64,000 nucleotides of DNA from a plasmid: sequence record NZ_CP096760.1. One strand, 5' to 3'. Below the pieces are notes generated by a model. The model did not search any database and was not told the origin of the DNA. It worked only from the letters and a program-made list of their open reading frames with translations. The translations under genes were made by a program, and so were the position numbers. Of this stretch, positions 1,592 to 62,184 are shown one piece after another (the stretch's first letter is position 1; each line of letters opens with the position of its first letter).

Positions 1592-1707
1592 ACATTCCGG
1601 CACTTGGGTCTTTTCCGAAAACTTGGGTTTTTGAAGTGCTAACGAATAATTAAATAATACTTTCTATAATATTTAAGTTTTTATATTAATTATTCGGAAA
1701 CGATCGG

Positions 1708-2439
1708 ATGTCCCAAGTTGAAAAACAAATACCCAAGTATTTAGATTGGGCGGGTCACTTTTATGGCAATGACCTTGATTTAGAACATTACGAAATTCTC
1801 ACCATTCAATACATTCCCAAGAAAGAGCGGAAGCTAGAAACGCAGTTAATGACAACCAAGTGGTTTGACTATAGGCTGATGCATCCCATGCAAGCCACTT
1901 ATTACTTCTTTCGGCTTTTCAAAAATGAATATCGAAACTTTTATAGAAAAGCTATTGATCATAAGGCGGCCGAATTCGTTAAACCCATTAAGGAGCGAGA
2001 TTTCTTACTCAGCCGTGAGGCCTTGTCATTTTGGCGACTCAGACAGGCAATTGATGCTTTGGGAATGCGTTATGACTTCTATTTAAAAACCGCATTTGAT
2101 AAATGCTTTAAGGTGATTGCGAATGGTAGACCTTTGCCACCTAGACCTGCTCAACTAAAAAAAGAAGAACTGTTAATTGAAGTGTTCCATGAGTGGGAGT
2201 CTTATTGTCAAGCTTCGCTCCAGATCGCTAAAAGTCCATATTTTACCGCTACACTTTTTCATAACAGTCCAATGCAAGTTGATTATGAAGATTTTATTGT
2301 TAAGCAGGTGCGGATGCGTCAAGTGCAGCATTATGCATTAGGGACATGCATTTATCGCTATGATGCACTTCGCATTGAAAAAGCTTTAGAGTCTTTTGAC
2401 ATTTCGATCATCAACCAAGCTATTAAATCCAGTATTTAA
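1708..2439 (+). CDS. hypothetical protein
   Basis: 243-aa ORF in a compact same-strand array. Confidence 0.5.
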   Translation: MSQVEKQIPKYLDWAGHFYGNDLDLEHYEILTIQYIPKKERKLETQLMTTKWFDYRLMHPMQATYYFFRLFKNEYRNFYRKAIDHKAAEFVKPIKERDFLLSREALSFWRLRQAIDALGMRYDFYLKTAFDKCFKVIANGRPLPPRPAQLKKEELLIEVFHEWESYCQASLQIAKSPYFTATLFHNSPMQVDYEDFIVKQVRMRQVQHYALGTCIYRYDALRIEKALESFDISIINQAIKSSI

Positions 2440-2458
2440 TGCTTTTTTCTCTTAAAAT

Positions 2459-2480
2459 ATTAATAAGCGCTTACTATAAT
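2459..2480 (+). promoter_or_regulatory. Conserved palindrome plus TATAAT promoter-like element
   Basis: TTAATAAGCGCTTACTATAAT upstream of the 2527 gene. Confidence 0.45.
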
Positions 2481-2526
2481 TTGATAATATCGTTTTTATA
2501 GTAATTACTAATGTTTCGAGGTTTTA

Positions 2527-2958
2527 ATGAGCGAATGGCAGAAAGAACTTGCGATACAAAACAAGTTCGGCAATAGCGCTCCAATTTCAAAGGAGTCTAT
2601 TTACTTAAATACGGAAGAAAAGCAAAAACTTCAATTTCAGCCGCGTAAAACGTATGGGCGTAGGCTGCCTGCGAACGAATGCGAAATTGAAGAAATGGGC
2701 TACATGAAGTTTGTTCGCAAGCTGCAAGAGCAAGAACAGGAAATTGTAGTCATTAAAACAGACGGCGAAGTTGTGCGTGGATACATCCGTGCTGCGGATG
2801 CAGAAACGATCTCGCTTCGTTGTTATTTGAATGGTGATAAAAACGGTCGTTATCGTGCGCGTGTTCTTTTCAAACACCAAATTTCCGAGTTCTCACCAAC
2901 TAAGGGGATTGAAGACCTAGTTGATGAGCTAGAGAGAAAGTCGAAATCTAAATCTTAA
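2527..2958 (+). CDS. hypothetical protein
   Basis: 143-aa ORF. Confidence 0.5.
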   Translation: MSEWQKELAIQNKFGNSAPISKESIYLNTEEKQKLQFQPRKTYGRRLPANECEIEEMGYMKFVRKLQEQEQEIVVIKTDGEVVRGYIRAADAETISLRCYLNGDKNGRYRARVLFKHQISEFSPTKGIEDLVDELERKSKSKS

Positions 2959-2994
2959 ACGTAAGCCATCTATTTTCTATAAGGATTATCTTAT

Positions 2995-4398
2995 ATGTCT
3001 ACTGCTGTGGCCGAAATTCATGAAGAAGAGGTCGTTGATAAAGAACTCGAAGGCTTCACCGAAGAAAAGTTTGATTACGACGATGAGTTTCAATCAAAAA
3101 TTGCGGCTTTAACTTTACGTGACGATGAGTTTCTTAGAAGAGCCGCCCATATTCTGAAGCCAGAATTTTTCGAAAATCAGGGTGAAGCATGTCTGGTCGA
3201 TATTGCGCTCCAACACTTCAATAAATATGGATGTTCTCCTGATCCTGCTTCTGTTGTCCAAATTATCAAGGATAAAGCTGCTTCTAAAGTTTATAAGCGA
3301 GAAACTTTAGCGGCAATTGTGGAAGCAAGGAAGAAATTAATTGGCATCTATGTCACTGACAAGGCTTTCGTTGAAGAAAAGGTTGTTGAGTTCGCGCGAA
3401 AACAGGCGGTATCCAATGCGATTGTTAATTCTGTTCCTGATCTTGAGGCAGGGAATTACGCCAAGATTGAAGCGCGTATCAAGGAAGCTATTGCGGTCGG
3501 ATTGAATGAAGAGGGTGTTGGTTATGACTTCTTCGCTCAGGCGTTGAATCGTAAGCTGGCACGTATCGAGAAGCTGACAGGCAAAGTACCTCCGACAGGC
3601 ATTACTACTGGCTGTAAAGAACTTGATGATCTGCTGTATCACAGAGGTTGGGGACGCAAGGAGCTGTCTCTATTAATGGGCGGTGCAAAAGCAGGTAAGA
3701 CGCAAGCGCTTATTCACTTTGGCCGTATCGCAAGCTTTGCTAAATACAACGTTCTATATGTAACGCTAGAAGTTGGTAAAGACATTATTGCAGACCGTTT
3801 AGATGCCTCTATTTCAAAAGTGATCATGAAAGAATTGGCGTCGAAGGCTGCAAGTGTTGCAACTGCGGTCGAGACGGTAGCCAAGACGGCGGGCAAATTT
3901 ATTATTCATGAATTTGGTTCCGGTACATTTTCTCCGTCACAGCTAAGAGCATTAATTGATAGGTATAAGAATCCTGGGCGGAACCCTGATGGAACGATAA
4001 GACCGCCAATCAAGTTCGATATGATCATTGTGGACTATGCAGATTTGATGCGTCCAGATATTCGTACAAATGACCCAAAAGAGAACTCAAGAGTTGTCTA
4101 TGTTGATTTACGCGCGATTGCTTTTGAAGAGAATGTGGCGTTACTGACAGCTACTCAGACCAACCGTGAGGGCTTTAAGTCAACGGTAGCCAAGGCAGAG
4201 CACGTAGCTGAGGACTTTAACAAAATCAGGACCGCTGACGTTGCAATCTCCATCAACATTACAGAGGAAGAGAGAGCGAAAGGTCAGGCTCGATTGTACT
4301 TTGCAGCTTCTCGAAACCAAGAGATGGGGGTTACTGTGGTGATTAAGCAGAATGTGTCCATGATGAGGTTCTTGGAAGAAGTGATTAGCGTCGAATAA
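2995..4398 (+). CDS. DnaB-family replicative DNA helicase
   Basis: Walker A GGAKAGKTQAL. The domain order is DnaB-like, with the C-terminal RecA-like ATPase. Confidence 0.8.
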   Translation: MSTAVAEIHEEEVVDKELEGFTEEKFDYDDEFQSKIAALTLRDDEFLRRAAHILKPEFFENQGEACLVDIALQHFNKYGCSPDPASVVQIIKDKAASKVYKRETLAAIVEARKKLIGIYVTDKAFVEEKVVEFARKQAVSNAIVNSVPDLEAGNYAKIEARIKEAIAVGLNEEGVGYDFFAQALNRKLARIEKLTGKVPPTGITTGCKELDDLLYHRGWGRKELSLLMGGAKAGKTQALIHFGRIASFAKYNVLYVTLEVGKDIIADRLDASISKVIMKELASKAASVATAVETVAKTAGKFIIHEFGSGTFSPSQLRALIDRYKNPGRNPDGTIRPPIKFDMIIVDYADLMRPDIRTNDPKENSRVVYVDLRAIAFEENVALLTATQTNREGFKSTVAKAEHVAEDFNKIRTADVAISINITEEERAKGQARLYFAASRNQEMGVTVVIKQNVSMMRFLEEVISVE

Positions 4399-4413
4399 AT
4401 TTAACCCAATATT

Positions 4414-4465
4414 ATAGTAAGCGCTTATTTATAAATTTGTGCTAGTATAAATAAGCGCTAATTTT
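4414..4465 (+). promoter_or_regulatory. Two tandem copies of the palindromic promoter-like element
   Basis: TATAGTAAGCGCTTATTTATAAAT and GTATAAATAAGCGCTAATTTTATC upstream of the primase gene. Confidence 0.4.
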
Positions 4466-4470
4466 ATCTA

Positions 4471-5580
4471 ATGCGATTTTGCAATATGAGCGATCAAGAA
4501 AGTTTAGCGGAGATATTAGACCGCATTGATATGGAGTATTGGCTTAACCGCGAAGGGTTTGAATACAAAGTAACTCGCGGAAAAAACGGAATCCAGTTGA
4601 ATGTTAAGGAATGTCCGGTATGTGGTAACTCAAGCTGGAAAGTCTATCTGAATCAGGATACGGGTTTGGGTAACTGCTTTCATGGTGATTGCGAAACCAA
4701 ATTCTCGAAATGGAAGTTTATTAAGGCTGGTATAGGCGGTAATAGCCTAAGCAATAAAGAGATAGTCGAGCATGTTAAAGCAATTGCTCAGGAGCAGGGC
4801 TGGCAGCCAAAGCGCAAAAGTGAACCCACACAAACCAAAATTGGCGATCTAAAGCTTCCAAAAGCCTATGACTTGCCGATCATGGGTCAGAACCTAAAGT
4901 ACCTTAAAGAGCGAAATATAACGCTCGATACGTGTCGTGAATTTGGACTGAAATTCTGTCAAAAGGGTTGGTTTGCATACATAGGCCCAACGGGTGAAAA
5001 GCAATACCAAAACTACAGCATGAGAATCATCATTCCTGTCAGGGACCTTGAAGGCAAGCTTGTGTCTTTTCAGGGTCGGGACATTACAGGAAAGGCTGAA
5101 AAGAAGTATCTATTTCCTCCTGGTTTCGCGTCTACGGGCACTTACCTATATAACGGCCATAATGCCCTAGGTTACGTTGAAATCGTCATGGGAGAGGGTG
5201 CTTTTGACGCTATGGCGATATATCAAGCCTTCAAGGAAGACGAGTTCCTTTGCAATGTTGGAGTTGTCGCGTCATTTGGTAAGCATCTTTCGGTAGGTGG
5301 TGATGAATCTCAAATGGCTGAACTACTAAAGCTTAAAGATGAGGGATTGGAGTGCGTGACGATTATGTGGGATGGAGAGCCTGCCGCAATTCTGTCTGCG
5401 ATCGACGCATGTTTAAAGATAAATAGCTTTGGCATAAAAGCAAGGTTGGCCACGTTGCCTGCTGGATGTGACCCCAATGAAGTCGACCCTGAAATCGTTC
5501 GCACAGCGTATCGAAAAGCGATACCAATTACGCCAATTAGCGCAGTAAGTTTACGCATTAAGTATATGGGTAAAGTCTGA
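4471..5580 (+). CDS. DNA primase (zinc-ribbon plus Toprim)
   Basis: CPVCGNSSWKV...CFHGDC zinc ribbon; Toprim-like IVMGEGAFDAMAIYQ and MWDGEPAA. The true start may be the internal Met at 4486. Confidence 0.75.
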   Translation: MRFCNMSDQESLAEILDRIDMEYWLNREGFEYKVTRGKNGIQLNVKECPVCGNSSWKVYLNQDTGLGNCFHGDCETKFSKWKFIKAGIGGNSLSNKEIVEHVKAIAQEQGWQPKRKSEPTQTKIGDLKLPKAYDLPIMGQNLKYLKERNITLDTCREFGLKFCQKGWFAYIGPTGEKQYQNYSMRIIIPVRDLEGKLVSFQGRDITGKAEKKYLFPPGFASTGTYLYNGHNALGYVEIVMGEGAFDAMAIYQAFKEDEFLCNVGVVASFGKHLSVGGDESQMAELLKLKDEGLECVTIMWDGEPAAILSAIDACLKINSFGIKARLATLPAGCDPNEVDPEIVRTAYRKAIPITPISAVSLRIKYMGKV

Positions 5581-19500: not shown

Positions 19501-21858
19501 ATGTTAAACCACGCAATGTCAGTGCAATCTGACTTTTCGATAGGAAAATCATTATTAACGGTAGACAAAATTGTCGAAGCTGCAAAAGGCTTAGGCTATT
19601 CATCGGTCGCAATCGTTGATGACATGTCCTTACATGCATTGGTAGATTTTTCGAACAAAGCCACCAAAGCCAATATCAAGCCGGTGTTTGGTTGTCGTTT
19701 GCGTGTATATGACGATTCTAAATATCGTAAGCCCCCTGCCTCATCTGGTATTGCTGAAAAACGCAACTTGATGTTCTGCCCTAAAGTCTACGTAAAAAGC
19801 GAAAAAGGCATTAAAGGCTTATTCAAACTTCTTACAGACGCAAACTCTAAAGAGCAATATTACTACCACAGCCGTACTGATCTGGATGCTCTATGCAAAT
19901 TGGAAGATGTGGTCGTAACGACTGGTGATATGTACGGTCTGTTTAGTCACCCTGATCACGAAAGAATCTTAAAAGTATTAAAAGCGAGATTTGGTGATGA
20001 TTTATATATTGAATTTAGTCCGATCAATACGCCATTGTTCGACCGCTTAAACTACTTAGGCTATTTGGCGTATGAACGCGAAAAAATTAAAACCGTTGTC
20101 ACTTATCCTTTTAACTATCTTGAGAATGAAGATGCGGACACTTTGGATGTATTGAGCGCTATCGCAACCAATACCCAACTTGATTTGCACTATCGTCCTA
20201 TTCAATACGTAAAAGATTTTGGTTTTAAAGAGCCAAAATTCATTTTAGACCATACAAAAGCTGCTATTCAGCGTATGGCTAAATATGAGCGCGTCAATTC
20301 AGCGGAAGCTTGGAAAGAAGGTCTAAAGAATATTTCTGAGCTGGTGGACAAATGCCAATATATTTTTGAGAAGCAGCCAGTTTCCCTACCTAAGCTAAGC
20401 ACTGACGAATTTAAAACACTATGCGCGAAATGCTTGGAAGGCTGGAAGAAACGCTTTTCTAAAGAGATTCTTGGATATAAGCCAACGAAAGCTGAATTAG
20501 ATACAGTATATAAATCTCGCTTAGGCTATGAGCTTTCAATATTAAAAAAGATGGGCTTTGAGTCCTACTTCCTGCTCGTTGAAGACTTGGTGATGTGGTC
20601 TAAAAACAACGGCGTGATTGTAGGCCCTGGGCGAGGTTCTGTTGGAGGTTCATTAGTCGCTTATCTGCTTGGGATCACGGACGTTGATCCTATACGTTTT
20701 GGATTGATCTTCGAACGTTTCATCAATCCTGAACGTCTTGACTTGCCTGATGCCGATCTGGACTTCGCTTCAAGCGGTCGCTACAAGGTGATTGATTACC
20801 TTGTTGAAAAATATGGTGAAGATTATGTCGCTGGTATCTCGAACTATTCAACACTAGCTTCAGCCTCAGCCCTACGTGATACAGGTCGTATCAGCGGTTT
20901 GAACAACATGCAATTAAGTGCGACCAAGCTTGTGCTTAAAGAACATGGAACGTCACTTGACCTGAATACTTCTGCGGACGCTGTGCCTGAGCTAGACAAG
21001 TTCCGCAATGAACATCCTGTTATCTGGAAGCATGCAACTAAGCTTGCAGGCACAATGAAATCGTTTGGCCAACATGCGGCAGGTATTGTTGTTGCAGGCG
21101 AACCTATCGTTAATCGAGCCGTGCTCGAGACTAGAGGAAAGTCACCAGTCGTCAATTGGGACAAGCGTGTAGTTGAGGATTGGGGCTTGATCAAGATGGA
21201 CTTGCTCGGTCTTGCCACCTTAGATGTATTAAACATTGCATGTGACTATGTAAAAGAGCGACATGGTATTGAATTGGATCTATTAAAGATTCCACTTGAT
21301 GATGAAAAAACCATGCAAGCTTTGGGTCGCGGTGAAACTGTAGGTGTGTTTCAGCTAGAAAGTAGCGGCATGCAACAACTATTGAAGAATATCTCAAACG
21401 GTGGCGCTGTAACCTTTGATGACATTTGTGCTGTTACCGCTTTGTATAGACCGGGCCCTATGGATTCAGGCATGTTGGATGACTATGTGGACTTACGAAA
21501 AGGATTAAAAGAAGTCACCTACGCACATGAAGTCCTTGAACCTGTTCTGTCTGACACTTATGGCGTTGTTGTGTATCAAGAGCAAACGATGGCGCTTGCT
21601 CGTAAGTTGGCAGGGTTCTCAATGGCTGAATCAGATCACCTCAGAAAAGCGATTGGTAAAAAAGACCTTAAGAAAATGGCTGAATTGAAACCGAAGTTTA
21701 TTGATGGTGCTAAAGCGGGGTTTGTAGAGGTTGAACTTGAAGATGGCACAAAGTTAAAAGTGCATCGAATGGAGAAGTTCAAATGCACTGATGGCGTGAT
21801 GAGAACGGTAGAAGAAGCATTCGCTGAAAGCGCTGAAATTCAATACTTTTATTCATAA
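19501..21858 (+). CDS. dnaE: DNA polymerase III alpha (DnaE-type), N-terminal part (PHP plus polymerase core)
   Basis: PHP N-terminus; GLIKMDLLGLATLDV and LRKAIGKK motifs. Homology ends near ...FIDGAKAG, then about 45 non-homologous codons before the stop. Confidence 0.85.
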   Translation: MLNHAMSVQSDFSIGKSLLTVDKIVEAAKGLGYSSVAIVDDMSLHALVDFSNKATKANIKPVFGCRLRVYDDSKYRKPPASSGIAEKRNLMFCPKVYVKSEKGIKGLFKLLTDANSKEQYYYHSRTDLDALCKLEDVVVTTGDMYGLFSHPDHERILKVLKARFGDDLYIEFSPINTPLFDRLNYLGYLAYEREKIKTVVTYPFNYLENEDADTLDVLSAIATNTQLDLHYRPIQYVKDFGFKEPKFILDHTKAAIQRMAKYERVNSAEAWKEGLKNISELVDKCQYIFEKQPVSLPKLSTDEFKTLCAKCLEGWKKRFSKEILGYKPTKAELDTVYKSRLGYELSILKKMGFESYFLLVEDLVMWSKNNGVIVGPGRGSVGGSLVAYLLGITDVDPIRFGLIFERFINPERLDLPDADLDFASSGRYKVIDYLVEKYGEDYVAGISNYSTLASASALRDTGRISGLNNMQLSATKLVLKEHGTSLDLNTSADAVPELDKFRNEHPVIWKHATKLAGTMKSFGQHAAGIVVAGEPIVNRAVLETRGKSPVVNWDKRVVEDWGLIKMDLLGLATLDVLNIACDYVKERHGIELDLLKIPLDDEKTMQALGRGETVGVFQLESSGMQQLLKNISNGGAVTFDDICAVTALYRPGPMDSGMLDDYVDLRKGLKEVTYAHEVLEPVLSDTYGVVVYQEQTMALARKLAGFSMAESDHLRKAIGKKDLKKMAELKPKFIDGAKAGFVEVELEDGTKLKVHRMEKFKCTDGVMRTVEEAFAESAEIQYFYS

Positions 21859-21906
21859 AATCAATCACTTATATTAATCAAATTGAATTAAAAACAGGTT
21901 GTTTAA

Positions 21907-22482
21907 ATGGAAAACTGGAAAGCAATTAAGAACTACGAAGGCTTGTATGAAGTTTCAGACTTAGGGCGTGTGCGGTCGCTTGACCGCATGGTCGCTGTTC
22001 CTCATGGTGGTCAACGTCTAGCAAAAGGGCAAGTGTTAAAACCTAAACAACATCGTGATGGCTACCTGTGTGTATTTTTAAGTAAGAAACAGAAGCAAAT
22101 TTGTCCAATGATTCACAAGTTGGTGCTTGAAGCATTTGTCGGAGAAAGACCAAGTGGAATGCAAGCGTGTCACGGTAATGGAGATAAGACAGACAACAGA
22201 TTGGTTAATTTACGATGGGATACCGTTAAGGCAAATCATAGAGACAAGAAAAAACATGGAACTACAGCTCGCGGAACCAAAGTAAACACAAACAAACTTA
22301 AACATGAGCAGGTAGTGGCAATTCGCGAGAAGCGGAACAATGGTGTGACATTACAAGCGCTCGCGGAAGAATATGGCATTTCTAACAATGCCGTCAGTCA
22401 CATTGTTTTGGGTAAGAACTGGCAATGGGTTGGTGGACCAATCCAAGAAAGAATTTTCAAAGATCGAGGCGCTAACCAATGA
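21907..22482 (+). CDS. HNH homing endonuclease (NUMOD4 plus HNH_3 plus C-terminal HTH), I-HmuI-like
   Basis: WKAIKNYEGLYEVSDLGRVRSL; HKLVLEAFVG...CHGNGDKTDNRLVNLRW. The gene sits between the two dnaE parts. Confidence 0.8.
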   Translation: MENWKAIKNYEGLYEVSDLGRVRSLDRMVAVPHGGQRLAKGQVLKPKQHRDGYLCVFLSKKQKQICPMIHKLVLEAFVGERPSGMQACHGNGDKTDNRLVNLRWDTVKANHRDKKKHGTTARGTKVNTNKLKHEQVVAIREKRNNGVTLQALAEEYGISNNAVSHIVLGKNWQWVGGPIQERIFKDRGANQ

Positions 22483-23744
22483 AAATTAAATCATTAAATA
22501 TTTTGAATGATGGTTTAGAAGAATCAGTTGCCGAGCGTATTTGGGAACAAACAGAAGCAAACGCCAACTACCAATTTAACAAGTCGCATTCTGTGGAGTA
22601 TTCAATCATTTCGGTTTGGTGCGCATATATTCGCGTTCATTACCCTGCTGAATACTTTGCCGCAAGTCTTAGCGTGGTTGATACAGAAGATAAGCTCACT
22701 GGACTTGTGAAAGATGCGCGTGAATGCGGCATTGAGATTCTTCCTCCTGATATTAATTATTCAGCCGATCGTTATAAGATTAAATCCAATACTGAAATCT
22801 TGGCGCCTTTCAATGCAGTCAAAGGTATTTCAGAAACGATTGCCAAAGCGATTGTGAAATTGAGAGAGAAGAATCGGGCTTGGAAAGTCGTTCGCTACAA
22901 GAAGTCGAGAAAGACAGGTGAAACCACACCGGTCTATGGTCCTGATGGTTCAGTTCCACCAAAAAAACGTTTTGATAGCTTTGACGAGTTCGAGAAAGCA
23001 GCATCTCAACCAAACTCGAAAGTGAATAAAACAATCGTTGAAAATCTCAGAGCAATTGGGGCGTTTGCAAGCATTGAACCTAGTGAGCCTTCAGCGAAAG
23101 ACCTCTCACGACGAAAGGACCAAATGAGGCTATTACCAGGATTAATTATTGATTCTGTAAAAGCAGATAGATACACAGATACCTCAGAGCCATTCCTGCG
23201 AGCTTCGTTGGTCGAGCATATGCGCGATTGCAAGCAATGTAACGGTTGCGACCTTGCTGGACAGGTTCATCCTGATATTCGTTTGGGTAAAAAGATACGA
23301 TTTATGGTTGTTTCGGACTGTCCAACTTGGGAGGAAGAAAAGAAAGGAAAACTACTCGAAGGCGAATCTGCTCAATATGTCAAAGCTGCAATTAAAGAAA
23401 ATGAATTAGCTGTTGCGGACGGTTATTACACAACGCTCGTCAAAGCCAAAAAACAAGACAAGTTCTTAACGACAGGTCAAATCAATGGATGTAGTCCTCA
23501 TTTGGCCAAAGAAATCGAGCTTCTTAAACCGCCAGTCATTGTTGCCCTTGGAAGTCAGTCAATTCGCTACTTATTACCTGACGTTAAGGTATCCCCTAGC
23601 GATCTCGTAGGCATGACTTTCTACAACCCTAAATTAGACGCAACCATTGTTTGCGGACTTAACCCACAGCAATGCCATTTTGACCCTACAAAGCTGGAAG
23701 GACTTGTAAAAGCATTCAAGGAGGTTGCTGACATTATTTCTTAA
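22479..23744 (+). CDS. dnaE: DnaE-type polymerase, C-terminal part, fused to a UDG-like domain
   Basis: YQFNKSHSVEYSIISVWCAYIRVHYPAEYF matches the E. coli DnaE segment [28 protein letters not shown]. The start overlaps the HNH stop (ATGA). Confidence 0.8.
   Translation: MKIKSLNILNDGLEESVAERIWEQTEANANYQFNKSHSVEYSIISVWCAYIRVHYPAEYFAASLSVVDTEDKLTGLVKDARECGIEILPPDINYSADRYKIKSNTEILAPFNAVKGISETIAKAIVKLREKNRAWKVVRYKKSRKTGETTPVYGPDGSVPPKKRFDSFDEFEKAASQPNSKVNKTIVENLRAIGAFASIEPSEPSAKDLSRRKDQMRLLPGLIIDSVKADRYTDTSEPFLRASLVEHMRDCKQCNGCDLAGQVHPDIRLGKKIRFMVVSDCPTWEEEKKGKLLEGESAQYVKAAIKENELAVADGYYTTLVKAKKQDKFLTTGQINGCSPHLAKEIELLKPPVIVALGSQSIRYLLPDVKVSPSDLVGMTFYNPKLDATIVCGLNPQQCHFDPTKLEGLVKAFKEVADIIS
23196..23744 (+). 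other. Degenerate family-4 UDG-like domain at the polymerase C-terminus
   Basis: CKQCNGCDL (Fe-S-like Cys motif); MVVSDCPTWEEE sits where UDG4 has GEAPGxxE; HFDPTKL near the end. Confidence 0.45.
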
Positions 23745-25064: not shown

Positions 25065-25925
25065 ATGAACGTAGCAAAACTTTTAGCAAACGCAAAGAAG
25101 AACAAAGACGCCCTCAAAAGCCGTGAATCTACCATCAAACCAAAGCCGGGTAAAAACAATTACGTTTTACTGGGAGACTGGAACCAAGAACGTAACGAAG
25201 AGTTCTACAAACCCTTCTCACAGCACTTCATTAAGGATTATTCAAAAGTCACGGACGGAAAGCCAGAAACGACCGTTCATGTATGTATGTCTAAAACTTT
25301 TGATGAAGACTGTCCTATCTGCGATGCCATTGCAGAAGCAGGTCGTTTAATTGGTGCCAATGCAACTGACGAACAGATCAAAACATTGGAAGACGCGAAA
25401 GCATCAACTGTGTATTTGCTCAATGTTCTTGAAGTTGATGATTCAGGCAAGCATGACGGTCAGCCTAAAGCTCTTCAAGTCGGCAAATTAACACTTAGCT
25501 CAATTCTGGACATGATGGACGATTGGGGTGAAGCAATTTTTGTGGATCATCAAGTTGTTACCATCAACCGTGAAGGTACAGGTCTTAATACGAAATACAA
25601 CGTATTACCGGGTTCCAAAAAGGTTCACGTTGATCCAGAAGTTTTCAAACGTATGATTGACCTTGACGATTATGTCAAACAAGCAAACGAAGAGAGAAAA
25701 CGCCTTGCGTTGGGTGCAATTAGACGCGCTGCTGGACTTTATGCCCCTGCAGAGCCGACACACGTCCCTGCTGAACGAACCATTGGCACATCATCAGCCT
25801 TGGCTAGTGATGTGACAGATGTTTCATACAAAGATGTCACCACCTCATCTTTGGATGTAACTGAAATTGATTTGGGTGATGAATTGGAAGCGCTCTTAGA
25901 TGATGCGCACCAAGAAGCAAGCTAA
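25065..25925 (+). CDS. gp32-like zinc-binding ssDNA-binding protein
   Basis: H...C...CPICDA zinc motif, as in T4 gp32; acidic C-terminal tail. Confidence 0.7.
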   Translation: MNVAKLLANAKKNKDALKSRESTIKPKPGKNNYVLLGDWNQERNEEFYKPFSQHFIKDYSKVTDGKPETTVHVCMSKTFDEDCPICDAIAEAGRLIGANATDEQIKTLEDAKASTVYLLNVLEVDDSGKHDGQPKALQVGKLTLSSILDMMDDWGEAIFVDHQVVTINREGTGLNTKYNVLPGSKKVHVDPEVFKRMIDLDDYVKQANEERKRLALGAIRRAAGLYAPAEPTHVPAERTIGTSSALASDVTDVSYKDVTTSSLDVTEIDLGDELEALLDDAHQEAS

Positions 25926-27025: not shown

Positions 27026-29226
27026 TTATGGAACCAAATTTATCTGCATTAGCTGACGACTTAGAAAAATTAATTGGCGACAACGAAGAAACGCAAACAG
27101 TGACTAACTGGCTTGATACTGGCGATCCAGAGTTAAACTTTGCGATTTCTGGACGCTATGACGGCGGTATTCCTTATGGTCGCATTGTTGAAATGTATGG
27201 TCCACCGTCATCAGGTAAAACCGCAGAGGCGACTGACTTAATGATTCGCGCCCAAGAAGCTGGCGGTATTGCCATGTTCTTTGACTGGGAACGTTCCTTT
27301 GATATTAACCTTGCGAAGAATCTAGGCTTAAAGACGGAGCGTCCATTCTGGATTTATAAAAAGCCTGAAACTTGGGAAGAAGGCAATGTTTTAGCAATGC
27401 GTGCAGTTGAGTTGATCCGCAATTCAGCAACAATTCCAGACGATGCGCCAATCATTTGCGTGTTTGACTCGGTTGCATCGGCAATTCCTCAATCTGTTTA
27501 CTATGACAATAAGGGCAAAAAGCGTGAAATCGACACATTCAATATGAGCGATAACACCGCTCTGGCTCGTGCTTCCAGTACGTCATTGAAAGTAATTGCT
27601 CAGACGGCTGAAAAGTACAATGCAACGTTCTTATATTTGAACCAACAGCGTACGAAAATTGGAGTGATGTTCGGTGATCCAACCTGTCTGAGAGCGGAAG
27701 TTCAGGTGCCATTCGTCGATGGTACGTCCGCAACCATGAAGCAAATTGTTGATGGCAAAATCAGCAAGGAAGTATGGTCTTGGAATGAAGTATCGGGTCA
27801 GCTTGAGCCAAAACGCATCATCGGTTGGCACAACAATGGCTCAATCAAAGGAACTGACAAAGAGTGGTATCACATCCGCGCTGTATGTCCTGAAACGCGC
27901 AATGGCATGGTTGCGGTATCGGGCACAAATGATCACAAAGTCCAAGTGAAAGACAAAGGTTGGATTAATTTTAGCGACGTTCGTGTAGGCGACTATGTGA
28001 TTACTCGCACCAAACGCACCTTTGCAGGAACAGCGCTTGAGTTCTTAAAGGGGTTGATCGGTTTTGACAGTCACATGGCGCGCGTGTCGTCGCAACGTCA
28101 GACAGCCGCACTGATCATTCAGGACAATGAAAACCCTGAATACGCACAGTGGAAGGTTGATCTGCTGTCACGCCACCTAAACTTCGTCAAGCGCGAAATC
28201 ACTATTAGCAAGGGCAATAAAGGGCATCGCTACGAGTCCTGTTACACCCATGAGTTGATGAAGTTTTACGACTTGTGCCGCTGTCCTCACACACTGTTCA
28301 AAGATGGCTGGACACCTATGCAATTAGCCATTGCAGTGATGGACGATGGTAATTACAAGGAGAGCAGCAAGACACTGAACCTGTCCTTTAAGCGACTGCG
28401 TGGCTGTGAGGATGAATTAGACGCAATCGGTCAATCGCTGTATCAATCATTTGGCTTAACTTATGATATTCGTTACGGTCAGGGTCGTATTGACTTTGAT
28501 GTAAAAGGTACTGCCAAGATCGCTGAATTGATCGCTCAGTACGTGCCAGACTGTATGCAGTACAAGTTACCGATTGAGTATCGCGGACGCTATGTAGCGC
28601 TCGAATTAGACGCTCCTGTTGATGAATCAGTTGTGCATTATGCAGAAGTGACAGAAATGCGCTTGGGAAGTAAAAATAAAGGCTCGGTAATGTATGACAT
28701 TACCGTTGAGGATAATCACAACTTCTTGGCAGGCAATACGCACAACGGTTTCTTGGTGCATAACTGCACACCAGGCGGTTCTTCTTTTGAATATTACGCA
28801 TCAGTACGAATTGCTCTTGGCCGTACCAAGTTAATGGAAACGGTCAACGGTAAAAAGCAGTTTGTGGGGCAGGATATTGCAACTAAAATTGTGAAAACCA
28901 AACTCACAAAACCGTTCCAAGAAACCACTATGCGTATGTGGTTTGACAAGAATGGCGTAGCGTTCTTTGACCGCCACTACAACTTAGTTGAGTTCTTAAA
29001 AGCTAAAGGCATTTTGAAACAGTCGGGCGCTTACATTGAATGGACTGACGGTAAGAAATATCACCTGAAATCGCTTTGCGACAAACTGAAAGCAGATCCA
29101 ACCGGATTGCAGCAGCTCCGCGCATTAATCCCTAAGATTTCACCAAGCGCTGATGACATTGAGGTCACACCGTTGATGAGCAATGAAGATGAAATGGAAG
29201 CTTTGTACAGTGACGATGCGTGTTAG
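27022..29226 (+). CDS. recA: RecA-family recombinase interrupted by an intein
   Basis: Walker A GPPSSGKT. Exteins join to KIGVMFGDPT/CTPGGSSFEYYASVRI, matching the E. coli RecA segment [26 protein letters not shown]. Confidence 0.85.
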   Translation: MIMEPNLSALADDLEKLIGDNEETQTVTNWLDTGDPELNFAISGRYDGGIPYGRIVEMYGPPSSGKTAEATDLMIRAQEAGGIAMFFDWERSFDINLAKNLGLKTERPFWIYKKPETWEEGNVLAMRAVELIRNSATIPDDAPIICVFDSVASAIPQSVYYDNKGKKREIDTFNMSDNTALARASSTSLKVIAQTAEKYNATFLYLNQQRTKIGVMFGDPTCLRAEVQVPFVDGTSATMKQIVDGKISKEVWSWNEVSGQLEPKRIIGWHNNGSIKGTDKEWYHIRAVCPETRNGMVAVSGTNDHKVQVKDKGWINFSDVRVGDYVITRTKRTFAGTALEFLKGLIGFDSHMARVSSQRQTAALIIQDNENPEYAQWKVDLLSRHLNFVKREITISKGNKGHRYESCYTHELMKFYDLCRCPHTLFKDGWTPMQLAIAVMDDGNYKESSKTLNLSFKRLRGCEDELDAIGQSLYQSFGLTYDIRYGQGRIDFDVKGTAKIAELIAQYVPDCMQYKLPIEYRGRYVALELDAPVDESVVHYAEVTEMRLGSKNKGSVMYDITVEDNHNFLAGNTHNGFLVHNCTPGGSSFEYYASVRIALGRTKLMETVNGKKQFVGQDIATKIVKTKLTKPFQETTMRMWFDKNGVAFFDRHYNLVEFLKAKGILKQSGAYIEWTDGKKYHLKSLCDKLKADPTGLQQLRALIPKISPSADDIEVTPLMSNEDEMEALYSDDAC
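27685..28764 (+). other. Intein (360 aa) with LAGLIDADG-type homing endonuclease motifs
   Basis: Starts with Cys (CLRAEV), ends ...VHN followed by +1 Cys. Internal LKGLIGFDSH and LAIAVMDDGN blocks. Confidence 0.8.
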
Positions 29227-42922: not shown

Positions 42923-43462
42923 ATGATTCCATATATTCTTGGAGTCGATACTGAAACGACAGGGCTAGAAGTAGATAATGGCGACAAGATTATTGAAATC
43001 GCTCTCATTAAATATGACTTGGACGGCGCAAAGCTAGAGGAATTCGTACAGCGAATTGATCCTGAACGAAACATTGATCCAAAAGCTCAAGCGGTGCATG
43101 GCATTTCCTATTCAGACCTTATCGGTTGTCCAAAATTTGTAGATATAGCAGAAGAAGTTGCCTCAATCGTAAATCACGCCTCTTTGTTAGTGGCTCATAA
43201 CTTTGCATTTGATGGCCCTTTTATCGCAACTGAACTGAAACGTGCAGGCATGACGCCTAAGAAAGTTTCTTCTTTCTGCACGATGGAATATGGCCGTTGG
43301 GCAACGTTTGATGGCAAATACCCAAAGTTAGCAGATTTGTGTTTTTCGTTAGGCGTTGAATATGACGCATTAGCAGCACACGCTGCATCGTATGACGTAG
43401 ACGTGATGATGCAGTGCTTCTTTAAGGCAAGAGAGCGAGGTTTCTTTCAGGTGGAAGTATGA
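42923..43462 (+). CDS. dnaQ: DnaQ-like 3'-5' exonuclease (DEDD family)
   Basis: ILGVDTETTGL (Exo I), HNFAFDGPF (Exo II), YDVDVM (Exo III). Start moved to ATG 42923, which has a GGAG RBS. Confidence 0.8.
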   Translation: MIPYILGVDTETTGLEVDNGDKIIEIALIKYDLDGAKLEEFVQRIDPERNIDPKAQAVHGISYSDLIGCPKFVDIAEEVASIVNHASLLVAHNFAFDGPFIATELKRAGMTPKKVSSFCTMEYGRWATFDGKYPKLADLCFSLGVEYDALAAHAASYDVDVMMQCFFKARERGFFQVEV

Positions 43463-62108: not shown

Positions 62109-62184
62109 TGCGTAGTAGCTCAGTAGGTAGAGCAGCGGACTGTTAATCCGTTGGTCACTGGTTCGAACCCAGTCTACGCAGCCA
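62109..62184 (+). tRNA. tRNA-Asn: tRNA-Asn (anticodon GUU)
   Basis: Cloverleaf: acceptor TGCGTAG/CTACGCA, D-arm GCTC...GAGC, anticodon stem GCGGA/TCCGT with loop CTGTTAA, T-arm ACTGG-TTCGAAC-CCAGT, encoded CCA. Confidence 0.85.

Follow-up and report, generated by a model that had tools for sequence, protein, structure and literature searches.

C-family DNA polymerases (DnaE) in which the OB fold and the C-terminal domain (CTD) are replaced by an archaeal-type uracil-DNA glycosylase (UDG) domain have been described (Timinskas et al. 2014; NAR 42:1393, PMC3919608), with representatives in Yersinia pestis and Salmonella enterica plasmids (PMC3919608), and the same layout also occurs in the phages SSU5, nickie, and RHEph10, the GenBank record of the last of these giving "uracil-DNA glycosylase-like" among its DnaE domains. 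Here, we analyzed a polymerase of this kind encoded in a 64,000-nucleotide stretch of plasmid DNA (sequence record NZ_CP096760.1), called the window below, where the C-terminal part of DnaE forms an open reading frame (ORF) of its own that RefSeq/PGAP names "uracil-DNA glycosylase family protein" across some 50 plasmids. Since the DnaE–UDG fusion is already present in the literature (Timinskas et al. 2014) and in database annotation, it is not new, and the window adds little to what is published on it; the novelty lies at the residue level, where the following is new here: the uracil contacts are lost throughout the clade and replaced by residues that are themselves conserved, the metal site has been remodelled to a putative Cys3-His one, and a clamp-like motif (DQxELLPG) adjoins the domain. 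We lean slightly toward the view that the domain no longer excises uracil and would act as a DNA-binding module, occupying the site of the missing OB fold close to the clamp contact and handling template or downstream DNA.

UDG folds are also found in replicases of other families. In N4-like family-A polymerases, the UDG domains lack the catalytic residues, and in SP15-like ones (YerA41, phiLo), an active UDG excises template deoxyuridine (dU) five nucleotides ahead of the active site, from the same place as that of Mpox E4 (bioRxiv 10.1101/2025.03.26.645540); the UDG domains of SPO1- and T5-like family-A polymerases were proposed to be possible intrinsic processivity factors, comparable to vaccinia D4 (Kazlauskas and Venclovas 2011, PMC3201878). 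Our polymerase shares with the family-A fusions (N4-, SPO1-, and SP15-like) the presence of a UDG fold in a phage replicative polymerase and, with the N4-like ones, the lack of catalytic residues; however, the domain is N-terminal there, whereas here the polymerase belongs to family C and the domain is C-terminal, which makes it an independent fusion. The poxvirus D4/E4 proteins are likewise UDG-fold proteins that are architectural for the replicase and sit on the template ahead of the polymerase, but D4 is a catalytically active family-1 enzyme and a separate subunit, bridged by A20 to a family-B polymerase. Closest of all is the variant of Timinskas et al., with which the window has in common the domain order PHP-Pol3-fingers-(HhH)2-UDG (PF03167), the lack of an OB or tau-binding domain, 34–39% identity to phage and plasmid proteins over 97–100% of the length of the C-terminal fragment, and a syntenic neighborhood, and from which it differs by a gene in two pieces around an HNH cassette, by the putative Cys3-His site, which is deleted in SSU5-type proteins, and by a 30-residue insertion.

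The domain under study is the following:

23196..23744, plus strand: family-4-type UDG-fold domain, residues 240–421 of the C-terminal fragment (PF03167, PDB sequence matches, AlphaFold2, Foldseek)

A first-pass annotation, made from the letters alone, had placed a UDG4-like domain at these coordinates, and both the position (residue 240 corresponds to nucleotide 23196) and the assignment hold. Pfam PF03167 matches residues 272–378 above its gathering score of 24.3, scoring 33.7 bits when the entire ORF is searched and 36.1 bits with the 182-residue piece alone, and a phmmer search of that piece against PDB sequences retrieved the family-4 UDGs of Sulfolobus tokodaii (4zbx, 7.9e-9), Thermotoga maritima (1l9g, 4.5e-8), and Thermus thermophilus (1ui0, 3.4e-6), with UdgX after them; using a profile from 17 close homologues, the 4zbx match improves to E=3.3e-16. 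The NCBIfam family-4 models score below their trusted cut-offs (Arch_udg, 48.7 vs. 250 bits; TIGR00758, 40.9 vs. 125.3 bits), and the domain is thus a divergent relative rather than an equivalog. The structure prediction that had been suggested as a check returned a UDG fold: the AlphaFold2 model, made from a 68-sequence alignment, has a predicted local distance difference test (pLDDT) score of 96.8 and a predicted template modelling score (pTM) of 0.92, and displays the alpha/beta/alpha fold with a four-stranded parallel central sheet (model residues 50–54, 90–94, 128–132, and 163–168) that, together with a significant profile match, defines the UDG superfamily. In Foldseek, the best 36 PDB matches are all family-4 UDGs or UdgX, with template modelling (TM) scores of 0.79–0.84 and root-mean-square deviations (rmsd) of 2.0–3.4 Å (TM 0.80–0.84 to 1l9g, 1vk2, 4zby, 1ui0, and UdgX), UDG families 5, 2, and 1 trail far behind, and the matches also include the phiLo polymerase (9qhs) and many PolA proteins. 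As modelled, the domain has the family-4 UDG fold. UdgX itself is defined by a motif A reading GEQPG and by an R-loop KRRIH with a crosslinking His (PMC10359453); covalent DNA binding of the UdgX type was rejected for the window, where there is no GEQPG and no KRRIH and the sequence after K322 reads AKKQDKFLTT.

An exhaustive phmmer search of 1.84 billion cluster representatives gave 1044 matches at E<=1e-3, of which 127 reach E<=1e-10. Nearly all of the best ~125 are C-termini of ~1080–1155-residue DnaE proteins, C-fragments of ~380–420 residues, or shorter pieces, and stand-alone family-4 UDGs enter only from E~1e-10. The fusion, for which the first-pass annotation had suggested a survey of DnaE homologues, is universal in this polymerase clade. 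By tblastn, 31 records of the phage collection cover at least 80% of the C-fragment, the full-length matches listed being all elements of ~84–122 kb, and IMG/VR holds 467 relatives of the C-fragment.

The rest of the polymerase is distributed over two ORFs:

19501-21858, plus strand: dnaE N-fragment ORF, 785 residues
19501..21720, plus strand: N-fragment core, residues 1–740, with PHP, Pol3 NTPase/palm, and fingers (Pfam PF02811, PF07733, PF17657)
22479-23744, plus strand: dnaE C-fragment ORF, 421 residues
22506..22886, plus strand: last part of the DnaE fingers, with the FNKSHS motif, and (HhH)2 (NCBIfam DnaE models)

Against the NCBIfam DnaE models, residues 7–740 of the N-fragment correspond to model positions 10–727 (E=1.6e-183) and residues 10–136 of the C-fragment to positions ~726–853 of 1146 (E=1.2e-33), while Pfam HHH_6 (PF14579, listed among DnaE domains) covers C-fragment residues 84–136 (E=1e-15). 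All the features of the C family, namely PHP, Pol3 core, fingers, and (HhH)2, are therefore present between the two pieces, and with PF03167 they make up the DnaE–UDG architecture in an extra, plasmid- or phage-borne polymerase, the intact 1130-residue DnaE of nickie having the same layout. The OB fold and tau-binding domain of the DnaE1 type found no match in the C-fragment, the DnaE models ending at ~853 of 1146 and being followed by a linker and the UDG fold; a canonical OB/tau-binding region, which had been named in advance as the outcome that would overturn the UDG assignment, is thus not what the DnaE models match at these coordinates. What this DnaE has where others carry their OB and tau-binding domains is a UDG-fold domain of the family-4 type. 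The earlier description of this domain as fused to the C-terminus of DnaE is right in that it sits on the C-terminal part of the polymerase, but the catalytic core lies on another polypeptide since the gene is split.

To compare pocket residues, 116 polymerase-linked members of the clade and 11 canonical stand-alone family-4 UDGs, all from the exhaustive phmmer search, were aligned with MAFFT. Family-4 enzymes carry motif A, GE(A/G)PG, motif B, HPS(S/A)(L/V)(L/V)R, and a conserved TNAV (PMC10359453); the corresponding segments of the window are:

23313..23327, plus strand: motif A position, S279-D280-C281-P282-T283, not GE(A/G)PG (alignments)
23424..23453, plus strand: Y316-Y-T318-T319-L-V-K322-A323-K-K325, where canonical enzymes have Y-I-T-N-V-V-K-C-R-P (alignment)
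23655..23672, plus strand: motif B position, G393-L-N395-P396-Q-Q, where canonical enzymes have (Y/F)-H-P-(S/A)-(S/A) (alignment, 4zbx profile alignment)

At motif A, phmmer sets "FMVVSDCPTWEEEKKGKLLEG" opposite "MFVGEAPGENEDKEGRPFVG", which bears out the first-pass alignment of a segment devoid of GEAPG, SDCPT standing there instead; the consensus of this segment across the clade reads x-D-(C/A/G)-P-(N/T/S), with Asp280 in 108/116 members, Glu in 3/116, and Pro282 in 98/116. The uracil-stacking Phe of P-F-V-G becomes Leu293 within L292-L293-E-G, the clade having L/M/G/A/T and retaining Phe in 9/116 members versus 9/11 canonical enzymes. The uracil-reading Asn of TN becomes Thr319; 111/116 clade members have A/S/T/G at this position, and none has the Asn (0/116 vs. 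9/11 canonical enzymes). As for motif B, HFDPTKL (23676-23696) had been taken for the counterpart of HPSPLN; this does not stand, as "YHPAAA" aligns with "GLNPQQ" both in MAFFT and in the 4zbx profile alignment ("Ginpqq" opposite "tYHPAA", "vfdp" opposite "LYNP"), HFDPTKL lying 5 residues downstream of motif B, opposite "LYNP". The equivalent of the catalytic-motif His is Asn395, in the segment L394-N-P-Q-Q-C-H400, and this position is N in 78, S in 22, T in 12, and H in 1 of the 116 members. In the window, motif A, the motif-B His, the TN Asn, and the stacking Phe of family 4 are thus all missing, and the canonical residue set is retained in 0/116 clade members, which implies that its loss predates the radiation of this polymerase family. 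Compared with family-4 UDGs (TM0511, 1l9g/1vk2; 1ui0; 4zbx) and UdgX, the domain therefore keeps the fold (TM 0.80–0.84, rmsd ~2.2 Å) and detectable homology (E=3e-16) but has SDCPT, Leu, Thr, Ala, and Asn in place of GE(A/G)PG, Phe, Asn, the third Cys, and His, lacks the KRRIH loop, and forms the end of a polymerase rather than a free-standing repair enzyme.

Since the domain lacks the residues with which family 4 recognizes uracil and catalyzes its removal, uracil excision appears unlikely, in agreement with the first-pass expectation of a domain probably without glycosylase activity. The companion idea of a uracil- or lesion-sensing module is unsupported, given that the residues that read uracil (TN Asn, stacking Phe, and motif-B His) are exactly those that were lost. 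The word "degenerate" goes too far: E/D286 (110/116), Y316 (113/116), Thr318 (115/116), Asn/Ser/Thr395 (112/116), and Pro396 (109/116) are conserved across the clade, K322, G358, and G393 are near-invariant as well, and such strong conservation of the replacement residues indicates a pocket under selection, not in decay, for which "divergent" is the better term.

This same conservation is what gives weight to the main competing explanation, namely that the domain is an active glycosylase with changed specificity, which through Asp280 and Asn395 and in an enlarged pocket would remove a base other than uracil ahead of the polymerase (e.g., a deaminated purine or a modified pyrimidine), as SP15-like family-A polymerases do for dU. 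The counts at D280, P282, E/D286, Y316, T318, and P396 denote strong purifying selection on the pocket, the small residues at 319 (A/S/T/G) and the aliphatic residue at 293 would enlarge it, active UDG domains fused to phage replicases do exist, and the motif-B His is lacking in family 2 enzymes (motif sequences in PMC10359453). We nevertheless deem this explanation unlikely, because the residues that define recognition and catalysis in family 4 are retained in none of the 116 members and because no genes for base modification were seen among the annotated neighbors.

A second departure from family 4 concerns the metal site:

23229..23270, plus strand: putative metal-site ligands C251, C254, C257, and H264, with the conserved unit C254-x2-C257-x6-H264
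23490-23492, plus strand: C338, aligned with the fourth canonical Cys

The [4Fe-4S] cluster of canonical family-4 enzymes is bound by the CxxC, by the Cys within KCRPP, and by that within ACxxxL. The CxxCxxC.L cluster reported by the first-pass annotation is present as "CKQCNGCDL" at residues 251–259. Within it, C254 and C257 align with the family-4 CxxC, such that three canonical Cys positions are retained (C254, C257, and C338), the N-terminal CxxC and the last Fe-S Cys lying at matching alignment positions in family-4 UDGs; the Cys of KCRPP becomes Ala323 and is never Cys in the clade, and C251, the first Cys of CxxCxxC, is an extra one, seldom seen in the clade (6/116). Seven residues past C257, His264 is found in 53/55 sequences having the Cys triad versus 8/53 without any triad Cys, which suggests a remodelled Cys3-His site (Fe-S or Zn) at Cys254/Cys257/His264/Cys338. 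The metal site is lost in about half of the clade and deleted entirely in the SSU5, ANB28, and RHEph10 branches.

That half of the clade does without a metal site would suit a protein–protein interaction or structural module, in which the metal would serve stability or redox functions and which would couple the polymerase to the helicase, primase, or single-stranded DNA-binding protein (SSB) of the element, with no direct role on DNA. The domain indeed replaces the one that binds tau in Escherichia coli, and a DnaB-like helicase, a primase, and a gp32-like SSB are encoded by the element itself; yet conservation is concentrated at the former active-site and DNA-contact positions and not on an alternative surface, and we regard such a module as the least probable of the explanations considered.

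Immediately upstream of the domain lies a conserved motif:

23109..23144, plus strand: candidate clamp motif, R211-R-K-D-Q215-M-R-L218-L-P-G-L222, adjoining the UDG-like domain upstream (conservation)

Located between HhH2 and the UDG fold, it has the consensus R-x-x-D-Q-x-E-L-(L/M)-P-G-(L/I/V), and among 89 homologues R211 is conserved in 85, D214 in 62, Q215 in 83, L218 in 67, L/M219 in 72, P220 in 77, and G221 in 66. Clamp-binding motifs follow the consensus QL[SD]LF (Q-L-x-L-F), and E. coli alpha has its internal motif, 920-QADMF-924, between HhH2 and the OB fold. The likeness to such motifs, at a relative position matching that in E. coli alpha, would suggest that the host clamp is used. 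As a side observation, a basic insertion of ~30 residues, AWKVVRYKKSRKTGETTPVYGPDGSVPPKKR, follows HhH2 at 22860-22960 (C-fragment residues ~133–163); it is present in the Acinetobacter protein and in P0021 and missing from most homologues.

The conserved upstream Q-x-E-L-L/M-P-G also bears on the possibility that the domain is an intrinsic processivity factor substituting for a sliding clamp, after the manner of the UDGs of SPO1- and T5-like polymerases and of vaccinia D4-A20. Such a role has been proposed in the literature (PMC3201878), the annotation of the element shows neither a clamp nor a clamp-loader gene, and the domain is universal in the polymerase clade; on the other hand, the motif, by suggesting that the host clamp is used, weakens the proposal, although the two roles are compatible. 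On balance, we consider an intrinsic processivity factor quite improbable.

The DNA-binding module that we favor could work as follows. The plasmid's own C-family polymerase carries the UDG-fold domain instead of an OB fold and a tau-binding domain, at the position where E. coli alpha has its OB fold binding single-stranded DNA (ssDNA). The module would lie on the template strand or on the duplex near the clamp-binding motif, helping the polymerase to hold or read the template, and the host beta clamp would probably be recruited through that adjacent motif. Its role would be analogous to that of the dead UDG domains of N4-like family-A polymerases and to the D4/E4 architecture of poxviruses, and the precedents of UDGs on phage polymerases, active as well as inactivated and placed on the template ahead of the active site, favor it by analogy. 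Several points weigh against it. The conservation of Asp280, Glu286, Tyr316, Thr318, and Asn395-Pro396 may equally fit a site retuned to another base, and MUG/TDG enzymes have an Asn in motif A and no motif-B His. The covariation of His264 with the Cys triad has a Fisher p of 1.6e-19 in a calculation that ignores kinship among the sequences, and the stretch D-Q-x-E-L-(L/M)-P-G (residues 214–221) is a candidate beta-clamp-binding motif by its resemblance to known motifs and its position only. Finally, our literature search found no biochemical or structural report on the DnaE-linked version of the UDG.

The split of dnaE deserves separate attention, as the two fragments flank an endonuclease gene and each carries residues of its own at the junction:

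21721..21858 (coding 21721-21855), plus strand: 45-residue tail of the N-fragment, GFVEVELEDGTKLKVHRMEKFKCTDGVMRTVEEAFAESAEIQYFYS, and stop codon, missing from intact homologues
21907..22482, plus strand: free-standing HNH homing-endonuclease gene with NUMOD4, HNH_3, and HTH (Pfam, PHROG)
22479..22505, plus strand: 9-residue head of the C-fragment, MKIKSLNIL, missing from intact homologues and kept in split ones

When aligned to the nickie DnaE, the N-fragment matches positions 1–741 and the C-fragment 740–1129, the latter only from its residue 8 on, such that the junction is seamless without extra residues. The gene in between belongs to the HNH endonucleases according to Pfam (PF07463, 4.3e-18; PF13392, 2.2e-10) and to PHROG HNH endonuclease families; three stop codons separate it from the N-fragment, its own stop overlaps the ATG of the C-fragment (ATGA), and a GAGG lies 9 nucleotides upstream of that ATG. 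More than 22 C-fragments at 29–57% identity start with M(A/P)K[IV]x[ST][IV]..L.DG. In a survey of 80 IMG/VR loci plus the locus of a 108-kb Logan contig (L011, SRR21686652_2297), 15 are split at the same dnaE site, 7 of them from Acinetobacter and 8 others at 39–57% identity, the other loci (>60) having a dnaE that is mostly intact or cut by contig ends. The nearest non-Acinetobacter relatives (59–66% identity) are intact whereas more distant ones are split, which points to a patchy distribution of the cassette. In 9/9 examined split lineages (the window, L024, L029, L048, L062, L073, L074, L081, and L083), we found a homologous tail, with a mean column identity of 49% among tails, and the head M(A/P)K[IV]x[ST][IV]; the gap is occupied by a NUMOD4-HNH gene in four of them and by an unrelated HNH family in another four, while that of L083 (287 nucleotides) is empty.

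A Pfam scan of the 45-residue tails returned chance-level matches only. Searched against the PDB, the profile of the nine tails hit only cyanobacterial-type DnaE split inteins (7qil at E=4e-4, then 1zde, 1zd7, 4qfq, 2keq, 4kl5, and others, from E=4e-4 to 5e-3), on intein residues ~57–105, apart from the top seven rows, which are designed repeat proteins without any significant stretch and were discarded as artefacts. The head of the C-fragment may resemble the first strand of DnaE intein C-halves such as those of Npu and Ssp. The tail begins with G/S-(F/N/Y/V/Q), the 9-residue head is followed by N-D-G, and there are no equivalents of blocks A, F, or G. By its sequence profile, the 45-residue tail is a non-splicing remnant of the N-half of a split intein. 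A functional split intein was rejected, as the lack of a position-1 nucleophile, of a terminal Asn, and of a +1 Cys/Ser/Thr excludes splicing. A group I intron was rejected too: no Rfam intron reaches the gathering threshold in the window and none matches at E<=10 in 21500-22700, the N-terminal residues of the C-fragment are conserved as protein in more than 22 divergent homologues, and only ~20 nucleotides separate the endonuclease stop from renewed DnaE homology. Nor is this a contiguous intein with an HNH domain, in view of the three stops before the HNH ORF, of its being out of frame with the C-fragment, and of lineage L083, which has no endonuclease at all.

This arrangement recalls the "fractured genes" of Dassa et al. 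2009 (PMC2677866), in which split inteins flank a free-standing homing-endonuclease ORF that separates the two halves of a gene. As in those, a gene half of a replication gene is followed by an intein-N-like tail, an endonuclease ORF, an intein-C-like head, and the second half; the pieces of the window differ in being reduced to ~45 and ~9 residues and devoid of the splicing residues, and yet they are conserved and found at a second site. That second site was observed in L011 (3701-7804), where a similar tail, a NUMOD4-HNH gene, and the head MKKIISARIIHG interrupt dnaE after the HhH2 domain, leaving the clamp-like motif and the UDG fold as a separate 267-residue protein. The different position of the L011 cassette implies that tail and head travel with the endonuclease cassette, and the preservation of the domain as a 267-residue protein of its own argues for a selected function able to act in trans and against a vestige. 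On this basis, tail and head look like the remnant of a split intein, mobile but unable to splice, by which the two halves of the polymerase may be kept together; in the window, where the domain is carried by a separate 421-residue polypeptide, the halves would presumably reassociate non-covalently through these remnants. Combining these elements, one may imagine a polymerase of two polypeptides joined by a mobile, non-splicing mini-intein "zipper" that homing-endonuclease cassettes would carry, and whose UDG-fold domain, far from dead, would be a retuned Cys3-His reader of the template beside the clamp-binding motif, detecting or excising a non-uracil lesion or a modified base ahead of the polymerase, a combination that we hold to be very improbable.

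Further interruptions of dnaE were observed in relatives. In A. baumannii (Acinetobacter baumannii) pZHOU-1 (NZ_CP104298.1; L003, 1501-5144) and about 20 other plasmids, the dnaE region is 1.3 kb longer and the N-fragment is interrupted again at GPGRGS|CFLAGH... ...VHN|CGGS by intein-N and intein-C pieces with the canonical Cys1, HN, and +1 Cys, a separate 343-residue ORF lying in between; DnaE is in three pieces there, and PLSDB lists no dnaE gene for those records. In L080 (IMGVR_UViG_3300037010_000836; 57% identity), the C-terminal ORF has 566 residues and homology to the N-terminal core extends over 1618-4994, which suggests another interruption or a frameshift at a third dnaE position.

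Concerning the element itself, the dnaE region (19501-23744) is 100% identical to plasmid unnamed2 of Acinetobacter sp. FDAARGOS_560 in the plasmid collection and 98–99% identical to some 50 plasmids of A. baumannii that measure about 104–145 kb (mostly about 110 kb) and carry the replicon rep_cluster_718/RepM. Megablast of this region against the phage collection gave zero matches, its relatives there being surfaced by tblastn, and IMG/VR contains the same plasmid sequences as viral contigs. The RefSeq annotation of the FDAARGOS_560 record lists RepM, DnaB-like helicase, primase, ligase, MoxR/CobS-like ATPase, sigma factor, dnaE, 5'-3' exonuclease, RecA, an SbcCD-like pair, ribonucleotide reductase, and 3'-5' exonuclease, that is, a self-contained replication and recombination module, and no clamp or clamp-loader gene figures in the annotation of this matching record. 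Two further genes of the window belong to the same functions:

25065-25925, plus strand: gp32-like SSB (Pfam)
42923-43462, plus strand: stand-alone DnaQ/RNase_T-type 3'-5' exonuclease (Pfam)

The exonuclease at 42923-43462 is likely the proofreader of the plasmid DnaE. Gene order is shared with Pseudomonas phage nickie, Salmonella phage SSU5, Rhizobium phage RHEph10, and related elements, the synteny with these phage and plasmid loci comprising CobT/CobS-like genes, sigma factor, dnaE, SSB, 5'-3' exonuclease, and RecA. The phage-plasmid group "AB" defined by Pfeifer et al. 2021 (PMC7969092) is specific to Acinetobacter, RHEph10 having been part of its original community, and the window most likely belongs to this group. 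We also observed that RecA (27028-29226, plus strand; 732 residues) contains at residues 229–579 an intein with a LAGLIDADG endonuclease (Pfam Intein_splicing, 8.6e-9; LAGLIDADG_2, 2.9e-5), RecA having ~340–360 residues in the related contigs L010 and L011, and that a single tRNA gene lies close to the window end (62109-62181, plus strand; Rfam RF00005, 73.3 bits).

From the perspective of annotation, the RefSeq name is misleading, since the ORF is the C-terminal piece of a split DnaE without any canonical uracil-excision residue. The split-intein remnant, with homing endonucleases at two dnaE sites, is more surprising than the fusion, and its conservation suggests a way for an endonuclease invasion to split an essential gene without killing it. 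If a retuned template reader were to prove true, it would be a third independent "read-ahead" device of polymerases, after the uracil pocket of archaeal family-B enzymes and the SP15-like fusions. More generally, C-family replicases of phages and phage-plasmids have recruited the UDG fold, as families A and B did, and this fold stands precisely where bacterial DnaE has the domains (OB and tau-binding) that connect it with ssDNA and the holoenzyme. Knowing the role of the domain would explain how phage-plasmids of about 100 kb replicate independently of the clamp-loader complex of their host, among them clinically important elements of Acinetobacter, Klebsiella, Salmonella, and Yersinia.

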